Virus record (IMG/VR): IMGVR_UViG_2713897190_000002
Origin: a virus
Taxonomy: Duplodnaviria > Heunggongvirae > Uroviricota > Caudoviricetes
Reading direction: 5' to 3' (one strand)
DNA: 38,367 nucleotides
This document shows positions 22,116 through 22,608 of this stretch, in pieces. The notes under the pieces are model-generated. The model searched no databases. It saw only the letters and a list, made by a program, of their open reading frames with translations, and was not told the origin of the DNA. The stretch's first letter is position 1; every line of letters begins with the position of its first letter. A program made the position numbers and the translations under genes.

Positions 22116-22367
22116 ATGAAAATCAGAAATATTCTCGCTATCTCCCTTGCGACATCATCCTTCAGTTGCCTGGCATTTAAATCCTCGCCCAATGTGCTAC
22201 CAGGACCAACGAATCAACTAACTGCGGTAGAAAGTAAAATTATCGGACATTTTTATGCCCCACACAGTACATTACCCGGAACAACCATCACAGGGACATG
22301 TGACGCCTCCCCCGTCCCGGGATGCACCTGTCCGTTTTGTACTATGCTGCGTAGCCAAAACCGATAA
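22116..22367 (+). CDS. hypothetical small secreted Cys-rich protein (83 aa)
   Basis: ATG with GAGG 8 nt upstream; signal-peptide-like N-terminus MKIRNILAISLATSSFSCLA; Cys-rich C-terminus TGTCDASPVPGCTCPFC; sits in the accessory region between cos and bor. Confidence 0.4.
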   Translation: MKIRNILAISLATSSFSCLAFKSSPNVLPGPTNQLTAVESKIIGHFYAPHSTLPGTTITGTCDASPVPGCTCPFCTMLRSQNR

Positions 22368-22428
22368 CATCCGCATTTACCTGGTATTCCATGATGAGTT
22401 CACGCAGCGACTGATAGAGGAAGGAAAG

Positions 22429-22608
22429 ATGGTTAGTAAAAGCAAGGCGCATTGCCGCCGCATGCTGCAGGCATTGCAACAGACGAGAGCAGGTATTTTT
22501 GACCAGTTGGAAAACTGCCAGCATACTTTGCCCGAGTATATCGCCATCTCATCGGAAACCAGTGCAACTCTTATTCATCGGGTTCCACCAGAGAAAAAGA
22601 AGAAATGA
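22429..22608 (+). CDS. hypothetical small protein (59 aa)
   Basis: ATG preceded by GAGGAAGGAAAG; translation MVSKSKAHCRRMLQALQQTRAGIFDQLENCQ...; not in the ORF track because of its length. Confidence 0.3.
   Translation: MVSKSKAHCRRMLQALQQTRAGIFDQLENCQHTLPEYIAISSETSATLIHRVPPEKKKK

Follow-up and report, generated by a model that had tools for sequence, protein, structure and literature searches.

An unannotated gene beside cos in phage-21-type prophages of Escherichia coli: a small four-cysteine protein, predicted to be exported, and the probable link of its family to zinc starvation

ZinT (YodA), a periplasmic zinc-binding accessory protein of the zinc-starvation (Zur) regulon in Enterobacteria, has approximately 216 amino acids (aa), a lipocalin-like fold, and uses histidines. 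AztD, which can be placed in the same group and serves the AztABCD importer as a periplasmic zinc metallochaperone, is a beta-propeller of approximately 400 aa. MerP is a Sec-exported periplasmic protein, made as a precursor of approximately 91 aa, which binds a thiophilic metal by C-x-x-C at the N-terminus of a helix and shows that thiolate metal sites are feasible in the periplasm. These proteins appear to be the best analogies for the product of a small open reading frame (ORF) that we analyzed in a 38,367-nucleotide (nt) stretch of viral DNA (IMG/VR record IMGVR_UViG_2713897190_000002; hereafter the window, meaning the whole stretch). The window is a phage-21-type lambdoid prophage of Escherichia coli in reversed orientation with respect to the standard lambda map. 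The ORF, designated ORF83, has 83 codons and lies next to cos; its product would work like a Zur-regulon periplasmic accessory protein or a small periplasmic thiolate metal binder, but belongs to none of these families.

The ORF83 family shares with ZinT its export by Sec to the periplasm (predicted for ORF83), a Zur box overlapping the promoter (in chromosomal homologues), and an association with high-affinity zinc import. In contrast, the mature ORF83 protein would be much shorter and cysteine-based, it has no sequence similarity to ZinT, and the phage copy has no Zur box. The likeness to AztD is one of position and possible role: in Klebsiella pneumoniae the ORF83 homologue lies directly beside aztD-aztC-aztB-aztA with a Zur box before each unit, and either protein could conceivably pass zinc in the periplasm on to a binding protein, whereas AztD is not homologous to ORF83 and the ORF83 family also occurs without azt genes. 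The loop of MerP and other HMA domains (G-M-T-C-x-x-C) resembles G-C-[TSN]-C-x-x-C of ORF83, which is likewise followed by a predicted helix; however, the ORF83 motif is C-terminal and contains four invariant cysteines, not two, and no match to Pfam HMA (PF00403) was obtained. Lambda Bor and Iss resemble ORF83 in their small, envelope-targeted products, in their place at the right end of lambdoid genomes and their orientation against late transcription, and in their presence in some genomes and absence from others, but they are outer-membrane lipoproteins (PF06291), whereas ORF83 is unrelated to them, is very probably not a lipoprotein, and is unannotated. The toxins STa and EAST1 are also short Sec-dependent precursors with a Cys-rich C-terminus encoded on mobile elements. 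They differ from ORF83 in the number and spacing of the cysteines, no hidden Markov model match connects them, and ORF83 homologues are chromosomal in genera recorded from non-clinical sources and accompanied by Zur operators.

ORF83 and its predicted product

The features of ORF83 in the window are as follows.

22102-22106 (+): Shine-Dalgarno sequence AGAGG, 9 nt before the ATG (read from the sequence)
22116-22367 (+): ORF83, 83-aa precursor of a small four-Cys protein, predicted to be exported (homologues, dN/dS, homology borders, intact in 76 loci)
22116-22175 (+): predicted signal peptide, residues 1-20, with signal peptidase I cleavage SCLA/FK at the slash (conservation of A20 and F21)
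22293-22352 (+): conserved C-terminal motif G60-x-C62-x3-P66-x2-G69-C70-x-C72-x2-C75-x2-L78-R79 (25-sequence alignment)

ORF83 starts with ATG at 22116, ends with a stop codon at 22365-22367, and is 149 nt from cosN, which agrees with the first-pass annotation of the window, in which an 83-aa ORF near cos had been noticed. Its homologues bear GGAG, AAGG or GAGG at the matching Shine-Dalgarno distance. A search of 5.8 billion proteins revealed 22 relatives, most of them 82-84 aa long, with identities of 55-98% in Escherichia, Salmonella, Citrobacter, and Klebsiella; those from Salmonella (several subspecies), Citrobacter, and Klebsiella were 55-77% identical. A profile search of 1.84 billion representative sequences gave 31 matches, approximately 25 of which were 79-86 aa long, down to 25% identity. 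Cluster look-ups placed the wider family in Enterobacter, Klebsiella, Salmonella, Serratia, and Pantoea, and a genome scan with a narrow alignment, which returned 5 genomes, added Buttiauxella. Full-length homologues (79-86 aa, 25-77% identity) are present in at least eight genera of Enterobacterales, the order to which the family is confined, and the members of the wider family are all labelled 'hypothetical protein'.

Comparison of ORF83 with six diverged loci by the Nei-Gojobori method gave ratios of non-synonymous to synonymous substitution (dN/dS) of 0.09-0.28, with synonymous sites saturated. Third-position changes dominated the codon comparisons (e.g., 22, 14, and 43 changes at positions 1, 2, and 3). 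Homology to the diverged loci in blastn started at 22108 and ended at 22357-22369, and these borders indicate that the conserved unit is exactly ORF83. In a population sample of 76 phage-21-type loci comprising 30 haplotypes, ORF83 contained 4 synonymous and 5 non-synonymous sites, no stop, and no indel, at a variant density of 0.036/nt. The codon usage of ORF83 is atypical for the phage, at -0.20 bits per codon; this fits a foreign cassette, though it is no positive evidence for one. On these sequence comparisons, ORF83 is almost certainly a real protein-coding gene. An upstream in-frame ATG at 22047, from which some GenBank records derive a 106-aa version, was not supported, with nearly all full-length homologues starting with MK[IV] at 22116.

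Members of the ORF83 family have already been deposited as hypothetical proteins, and the family is uncharacterised and absent from Pfam. Literature searches on its peptide motifs returned no matching paper. Searches on Zur-regulated small Cys-rich proteins returned no paper describing the family by title or abstract, and no earlier link to Zur was found there.

The N-terminus of the ORF83 product consists of a basic n-region (MKIRN), a hydrophobic stretch (ILAISLATSSF), and SCLA/F. A family alignment of 25 sequences, reaching 25% identity, revealed that M1, K2, A20, F21, G60, P66, L78, and R79 are nearly invariant. Position -3 of the predicted cleavage site is A, C, S or V in these homologues, giving a small-x-small sequence followed by Phe, and distant homologues have ALA/FQ, AMA/FQ, AWA/FQ or AGA/FQ without Cys18. 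A charged n-region, an h-region of approximately 10 residues, and small residues at -3 and -1, as expected for a Sec substrate of signal peptidase I, are all present in ORF83. The signal-peptide-like N-terminus described in the first-pass annotation was borne out by these n-, h- and c-regions and by the near-invariance of A20 and F21. The product is thus predicted with high probability to pass through Sec and to be cleaved behind Ala20 by signal peptidase I, and the mature protein of about 63 residues would be periplasmic.

If Cys18 were acylated, the product would instead be a lipoprotein. In the clade of E. coli, Salmonella, and Citrobacter, the sequence S-F-[SG]-C18 satisfies the permissive lipoprotein rule of PROSITE and Cys18 is invariant; one UniRef entry names an ORF83 homologue 'Lipoprotein', and the morons neighbouring ORF83 encode lipoproteins. 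The lipobox consensus is L-[AS]-[GA]-C, however, and F at -2 with S at -3 makes a poor lipobox. Most of the distant members have Ala in place of Cys18 (GALA, NALA, PALA, SAMA, and others), while A20 and F21 stay nearly invariant; the retention of A20/F21 where Cys18 is lost suggests a signal peptidase I site and not a lipobox. The signal peptidase II reading, which lacks a lipobox in the distant homologues, was rejected as very improbable.

In the mature protein, the N-terminal half is variable; it is followed by a short helix that is conserved (E39..I42..F46 Y47) and by the Cys motif, which alone is strictly conserved. Five residues, C62, G69, C70, C72, and C75, are invariant in the 25 sequences, and the cysteines follow the pattern C-x7-C-x-C-x2-C. 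Five cysteines in 17 residues had been counted earlier (TGTCDASPVPGCTCPFC); there are four, C62, C70, C72, and C75, and the fifth Cys of the precursor is C18, a signal-peptide residue that distant homologues do not conserve. The four cysteines of the motif would make up a Cys4 metal site or else pair in two disulfides. No match to ORF83 was found in scans of Pfam, NCBIfam, and PHROG, nor at E <= 10 in a profile search of the PDB.

The profile search also returned two long low-complexity proteins of eukaryote-like composition (P0104 and P0106), which contain 4-5 repeats of P-[IL]-P-G-C-N-C-P-K-C-T-x-L-R and have no Pfam match. The repeats resemble the ORF83 motif PVPGC[TSN]CPFCTMLR minus its first Cys, a likeness that may be convergent or may reflect a shared mini metal-binding motif.

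Zur boxes and zinc genes beside the homologues

Zur boxes were scored in the 200 nt upstream of each homologue against the core TGTTAT-N3-ATAACA (matches out of 12), with p values from shuffled sequences. The gamma-proteobacterial Zur box has the consensus GAAATGTTATA-N-TATAACATTTC (PMC2706843, PMC4219657). The boxes and genomic contexts of the homologues were as follows; positions are from the ATG.

Buttiauxella noackiae: Zur core 12/12 at -36
B. warmboldiae: Zur core 10/12 at -38
Citrobacter koseri: Zur core 11/12 at -39; homologue adjoins icd
Citrobacter sp.: Zur core 10/12 at -36; homologue divergent from a fecI-fecR-TonB-receptor operon
Serratia: Zur core 10/12 at -39; homologue divergent from an SBP_bac_5 ABC importer
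K. pneumoniae chromosome: Zur core 12/12 at -107; homologue beside a metal ABC importer
Salmonella: PPC-domain gene, homologue, Bor-like gene, omptin
Enterobacter: homologue 62 nt downstream of a P-type ATPase gene
Plasmids: 73 records with a homologue, 66 of them Klebsiella and 63/73 conjugative; mostly unannotated

Shuffle p values for the Zur-boxed homologues ranged from 0.000 to 0.036, and the box was the sole upstream sequence common to these loci. The five close boxes (C. koseri, Citrobacter sp., the two Buttiauxella, and Serratia) span -39 to -22 from the ATG; these positions fit Zur operators that overlap the -10 element, as footprinted in Yersinia (PMC2706843). In four Salmonella loci (subspecies), a 12/12 box precedes the PPC-domain gene by approximately 50 nt, and 95 nt separate the end of that gene from the ORF83 homologue. 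Altogether, seven chromosomal homologue lineages are Zur-boxed or adjoin a Zur-boxed upstream gene. The whole 38-kb window contains one site of at least 10/12 for the Zur core.

The neighbouring genes were examined for their relation to zinc. In Citrobacter sp. and Serratia, the box lies in the intergenic region shared with the fecI-fecR-TonB receptor operon and the SBP_bac_5 importer, respectively, the latter importer type covering peptide as well as metal importers. In K. pneumoniae, NCBIfam models identified AztD (459 bits, cut-off 400) and AztC (380 bits, cut-off 350) with their ABC partners and a second Zur box. A second dihydroorotase and a second porphobilinogen synthase are encoded there as well, and spare paralogues of such enzymes are typical of Zur regulons. 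The neighbours on the Klebsiella plasmids, where the homologue has no Zur box, include a COG0523 GTPase (best match ZigA) and a Fur-family repressor. In Enterobacter, also without a Zur box, the gene 62 nt upstream encodes a Zn/Cd-type P1B ATPase. Operators and neighbours are two independent kinds of evidence for an association between the ORF83 family and zinc, and from these sequences the family is likely to be linked to Zur and zinc.

Serratia plymuthica, Pantoea, and Buttiauxella, for which non-clinical sources are on record, each have a member of the family as a single gene on the chromosome. In phages and prophages, three arrangements of the cos-proximal region were compared.

Phage 21 type: cos, Fur-like box, ORF83, then unrelated DNA with the ORF59 frame described below
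E. coli lambdoid prophages L011-L013: Nu1, cos, Fur-like box, ORF83, then a plus-strand DUF3950 gene, then Rz
Lambda: the same cos-proximal backbone and DUF3950 ORF, without ORF83

ORF83 is present in some and absent from other related backbones, and the homology is confined to 22108-22369. In its distribution ORF83 behaves as a self-contained, horizontally acquired moron cassette between cos and the next rightward gene.

The overall best explanation, with a probability of roughly 60%, is that ORF83 belongs to a family of periplasmic zinc-starvation proteins and that the phage copy is a moron without a Zur box. The chromosomal members would belong to the Zur regulon. The protein would bind Zn(II) or another thiophilic metal via the four cysteines, or would contain two disulfides made by DsbA, and its role would be to acquire or buffer zinc in the periplasm. 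The phage copy would have lost its Zur operator and be expressed from a cos-proximal promoter irrespective of zinc. It could then help the lysogen under host-imposed metal limitation, beside the envelope morons (TonB_C lipoprotein, Iss/Bor). Taken by itself, the idea that ORF83 binds zinc directly or acquires it is tentative and less likely than not; we would rank zinc capture or handover first and a non-metal envelope role second.

Several observations weigh against the zinc-starvation reading. The K. variicola and Enterobacter members have no Zur box within 200 nt, and neither do the phage, L011-prophage, and plasmid copies (best 7-8/12); upstream of ORF83 in the window itself the best core scored 7/12 (p = 0.98), which does not make it a member of a Zur regulon. 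The zinc link of the prophage and plasmid copies is thus transferred from their homologues. The AlphaFold2 models of ORF83 were poor, with a mean predicted local distance difference test score (pLDDT) of 47.6 for 15 and 60.6 for 25 input sequences; the better model placed C-x-x-C at the N-terminus of the C-terminal helix, at a confidence too low to judge the fold. Four periplasmic cysteines are expected to form DsbA disulfides, which would favour a structural over a metal-binding role.

Such a role is the basis of one rival, in which ORF83 is a disulfide-knotted envelope protein unrelated to metal binding, for instance an inhibitor of an envelope enzyme or receptor that serves superinfection exclusion or protection from a host factor, with zinc starvation acting as a proxy for the host. 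The even number of invariant cysteines in an exported protein fits DsbA-dependent disulfides, the phage neighbours of ORF83 are the envelope morons Iss/Bor and the TonB_C lipoprotein, and the Salmonella homologue is grouped with a Bor-like gene and an omptin. PliG, a lysozyme inhibitor under Zur control, is a precedent for envelope defence without a metal function within a Zur regulon (PMC4219657). We nevertheless consider this explanation unlikely: ORF83 has no similarity to any inhibitor family, its homologues repeatedly adjoin genes for zinc transport or zinc chaperones (AztABCD, ZigA-like GTPase, P1B ATPase) and not envelope-defence genes, and G-C-x-C-x-x-C at a predicted helix N-cap, in the low-confidence model, resembles metal-binding loops. 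In the first-pass annotation the frame had been read as a small secreted Cys-rich product of a prophage, possibly a toxin or bacteriocin-like peptide. The exported Cys-rich product stands as a prediction from conservation, whereas the toxin reading is unsupported: the family has a Zur/zinc context and no similarity to any toxin or bacteriocin family. As a toxin, ORF83 would be a pre-pro-peptide in the style of the heat-stable enterotoxins with an active Cys-rich C-terminus, and its layout does resemble that of STa: the signal peptide precedes a middle region that varies, and a Cys-rich C-terminal segment (approximately 24 residues) is conserved. Carriage by prophages, conjugative plasmids, and a Salmonella island with a SPATE autotransporter and an NEL effector would suit a toxin as well. 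The Cys patterns of ST and guanylin, however, differ from C-x7-C-x-C-x2-C. Scans with ORF83 of Pfam, NCBIfam, PHROG, and the PDB gave no match, whether to an enterotoxin, a microcin or a bacteriocin family. No immunity, export or processing genes accompany the family, which has no conserved partner across more than 10 contexts, stands alone on the chromosomes of S. plymuthica, Pantoea, and Buttiauxella, and has the Zur box as its conserved regulatory signal. A secreted toxin is therefore highly improbable.

A bolder form of the zinc-starvation reading is speculative and in our estimate rather improbable: the family could be a new class of periplasmic or released zinc-capturing mini-protein, a Cys4 'proteinaceous zincophore' of approximately 60 residues or a chaperone feeding importers of the Znu/Azt type, which phage-21-type prophages and Klebsiella IncF plasmids have captured with the Zur operator stripped off. 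Lysogens and plasmid carriers would then make a zincophore constitutively and have an edge against zinc limitation imposed by calprotectin, and a lysogenic-conversion trait in metal piracy would be invisible to current annotation. Zur boxes and genes for zinc import or zinc chaperones adjoin the family repeatedly, across at least six genera and 66 Klebsiella plasmid records, which makes it a candidate new component of enterobacterial zinc homeostasis. It is also a possible case in which mobile elements have spread a metal-starvation gene free of its regulator.

Two of the chromosomal contexts were observed to form islands. In Salmonella (L008, L017, L024, and L025; approximately 4454-7166), a perfect Zur box is followed by the genes for the PPC-domain protein, the ORF83 homologue, a Bor-family lipoprotein, and an omptin; in subsp. 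salamae the island is flanked by a SPATE autotransporter and an NEL-type E3 ligase effector. The arrangement has the appearance of an islet for virulence or fitness under zinc control. In K. pneumoniae (L037; CP032833.1), region 494-9400 contains the second dihydroorotase, the second porphobilinogen synthase, a 111-aa protein of unknown nature, an FAD oxidoreductase, the ORF83 homologue, and aztD-aztC-aztB-aztA. The region has two Zur boxes, at 4894 and 9377, and appears to be a Zur island.

The DNA downstream of ORF83

Downstream of ORF83, the following elements were considered.

22429-22608 (+): ORF59, open frame of 59 codons, with the strong Shine-Dalgarno sequence GAGGAAGGA at 22417-22425
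22342-22524 (-): ORF60 (WP_000881610.1, CPT_21_75, phrog_3744), annotated in RefSeq and phage 21
22571-22693 (-): CPT_21_74, 40-aa ORF, doubtful as a gene
22614-22640 (no strand): 12-bp stem-loop, 6 nt after the ORF59 stop; -19.4 kcal/mol, z = -2.5 on the plus and -3.4 on the minus strand

The 59-aa ORF had been described from the sequence as following ORF83 and overlapping it. ORF59 does exist, with its start at 22429 and the strong Shine-Dalgarno sequence, but the two ORFs are 61 nt apart, and only an extension of the ORF59 frame to 117 codons (ATG at 22255) overlaps ORF83. Relatives of ORF59 were found in E. coli only, at identities of at least 90%, apart from one 87%-identical contig (L020), which was discarded as assembly noise for being riddled with indels and having a broken TonB_C gene as well. 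ORF59 is absent beside every ORF83 homologue outside E. coli. In the 76 loci it had 2 synonymous and 7 non-synonymous sites and two frameshift alleles, at a variant density of 0.061/nt versus 0.058/nt in the flanking non-coding DNA. One frameshift, a 1-bp insertion after codon 5, defines the L023/L021 lineage and leaves a truncated 48-aa product on 486 contigs. The codon-usage log-odds of ORF59 and ORF60, 0.04 versus 0.13 bits per codon, were not separable. ORF59 matched nothing in Pfam (E <= 1) or NCBIfam, and BLASTP against the DUF3950 protein of L011 gave nothing at E <= 100, so that it could not be identified with PF13132. Nothing beyond its open frame and Shine-Dalgarno sequence speaks for a gene, and it shows no sign of selection. 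These results suggest that ORF59 is probably no functional gene and at most a young, unconstrained one.

ORF59 could alternatively be a real small gene co-transcribed with ORF83, the two forming a moron that includes a basic, possibly DNA-binding partner. Its near-optimal Shine-Dalgarno sequence, its strand, which is that of ORF83, the short distance of 61 nt to ORF83, and the hairpin 6 nt past its stop all count in favour of this and against the non-functional frame that we prefer. So does the real small gene (DUF3950) that occupies the same slot in the same orientation in lambda and the L011-type prophages. Moreover, ORF59 is the best or second-best of the six frames by codon score, PHROG 4843 and a RefSeq MULTISPECIES entry exist for it, and its locus is transcribed in lysogens. 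A functional ORF59 is nonetheless improbable, considering that its relatives are restricted to phage-21-type prophages of E. coli and never lie beside ORF83 homologues elsewhere, that its polymorphism (2 synonymous, 7 non-synonymous, two frameshift alleles) is as dense as in the non-coding flanks, and that it matches no family or domain and has no similarity to DUF3950.

In lambda, the DUF3950 ORF itself is unannotated. It encodes a 64-aa protein of the YlcI/YnfO type (NC_001416 48109-48303, complement; L044 1710-1904, minus strand; Pfam E = 1.9e-20) and sits between cos and lambdap79. The protein, RNIRFPNQMIEQI...NFSAWVIEACRRRL, looks, judged by eye, like a ribbon-helix-helix DNA binder.

Transcription of the locus was assessed from non-directional RNA sequencing (RNA-seq) of the NC101 lysogen. 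GQ584_RS06970, which is listed after the TonB family gene, had a log fold change (logFC) of -7.5 in comparison with the prophage deletion; in the same comparison the TonB family gene had -9.9 and iss -6.2, and the TonB_C gene was among the most strongly expressed prophage genes. From gene order we infer that GQ584_RS06970 is the ORF60 locus, and on this basis 22342-22524 is transcribed in lysogens. The unstranded signal could come from an ORF83 transcript or be read-through from the highly expressed minus-strand TonB_C gene. The stem-loop at 22614-22640, between the plus-strand unit and the convergent TonB_C gene, has no canonical U-tract and is likely an RNA 3' end or a weak bidirectional terminator. 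The stretch that holds ORF59 and ORF60 would probably be transcribed with ORF83 as its 3' untranslated region, as far as this hairpin. CPT_21_74 spans the stem-loop and has a poor codon-usage score.

The first-pass annotation had also raised the possibility that ORF83 and ORF59 are one frameshifted gene. We considered this together with the possibility that the antisense ORF60 is the real gene here. Upstream, the frame of ORF59 stays open as far as 22255 and thereby reaches into ORF83, and a fused variant of 161 aa (P0085) exists. ORF83 homologues in at least eight genera, however, share a stop after ...LRSxx(R) and none runs into ORF59-like sequence, and the DNA homology of ORF83 ends at 22357-22369; the common stop and this border refute a single frameshifted gene. 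ORF83 travels alone in many contexts, which likewise shows that the two ORFs are not one broken gene. The fusion in P0085 destroys the invariant Cys motif and is confined to a single rare cluster. Fusion in relatives, which the first-pass annotation had proposed to look for, is accordingly limited to rare variants and is not the rule. Two further rare ORF83 variants, P0003 and P0006, shift into the 117-aa frame and back (insertion of PEQPSQGHV). All three are probably sequencing or assembly frameshifts or pseudogenes, and they explain why the idea of a frameshifted gene had looked plausible.

As for ORF60, it is called by PGAP and by the curated phage 21 record and is annotated in over a thousand genomes. 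A nonsense allele, E46* (22389 C>A), was nevertheless present in 22/76 loci (29%), its polymorphic sites in the 76 loci were 0 synonymous and 7 non-synonymous, and no relatives were found outside E. coli. ORF60 is very probably an annotation artefact, a spurious antisense call. For a frameshifted ORF83-ORF59 gene or a real ORF60 there is hardly any room left.

Annotation of this region is inconsistent among records. RefSeq/PGAP calls a single 60-aa minus-strand ORF in E. coli Nissle 1917, namely ORF60; the curated phage 21 record has ORF60 and the 40-aa minus-strand ORF, and some phage records annotate the plus-strand 117-aa frame (22255-22608). ORF83 is annotated in neither RefSeq Nissle 1917 nor GenBank phage 21, the records checked. 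The PHROG families for ORF59 (phrog_4843) and ORF60 merely mirror this inconsistent gene calling. In phage 21, a classic lambdoid phage, a conserved gene has been skipped and an antisense ORF propagated as a RefSeq protein; its correction is relevant to proteomics databases, transcript counting, and genome annotation.

The cos region and neighbouring genes

The remaining features around cos and ORF83 are listed below.

19331-21301 (-): terminase large subunit
21231-21779 (-): Nu1
21956-21967 (no strand): cosN cohesive-end sequence AGGTCGCCGCCC, marking the phage genome end
21991-21997 (-): cosQ, packaging termination subsite (phage 21 misc_feature OL657228 42902-42908, mapped via locus L002)
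22003-22017 (no strand): Fur-box-like 7-1-7 palindrome CGAGAATAATTATCA, 12/14 to TGATAATnATTATCA (shuffle p = 0.001)
22055-22063 (+): candidate extended -10 element TGcTATTAT for ORF83 (read by hand)
22731-23057 (-): TonB_C-domain lipoprotein gene, a neighbouring moron (Pfam TonB_C E = 7e-13; RefSeq 'TonB family protein')

Phage 21 (OL657228, genus Jouyvirus), E. coli Nissle 1917, and many other strains match region 22040-22640 with 100% identity, and the right end of the linear phage 21 genome maps to 21968 of the window. The region was present in 1231/5426 complete E. coli genomes (approximately 23%), at an identity of at least 99% in 1202 of the 1231; the carriers include Nissle 1917 and many extraintestinal pathogenic E. 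coli (ExPEC) strains.

The Fur-like palindrome beside cosQ was at first taken for an operator of ORF83. It is conserved in alignment A4 and reaches 14/14 in the L011-type prophage (approximately 4866-4880) and in lambda (TGATAATGATTATCA; L044 approximately 2053-2067, lambda approximately 48452-48466). Lambda carries the perfect box without ORF83, so the box belongs to the lambdoid backbone, and the first impression was dropped. The box may act as an iron-responsive operator of the rightmost gene that is transcribed leftward, or it may belong to the packaging signal. A promoter and terminator scan revealed no convincing ORF83 promoter and reported neither the candidate -10 element nor the hairpin at 22614-22640. 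The small RNA svsR of the NC-SV prophage was considered as a local regulator and discarded, its position being at cI and not here; an Rfam scan of 21780-23500 gave only sub-threshold noise.

Beyond the TonB_C gene lie bor/iss (+) and then Rz/Rz1, endolysin, and holin (-). The TonB_C lipoprotein might interfere with TonB-dependent receptors, in phage or colicin exclusion or in metal uptake. Further along, between the Q antiterminator region and the lysis genes, a 380-aa ORF at 25562-26704 (+) represents another envelope moron of the prophage. At the corresponding position in Nissle 1917, RefSeq has an OmpC porin, and the NC101 lysogen expresses that ompC.

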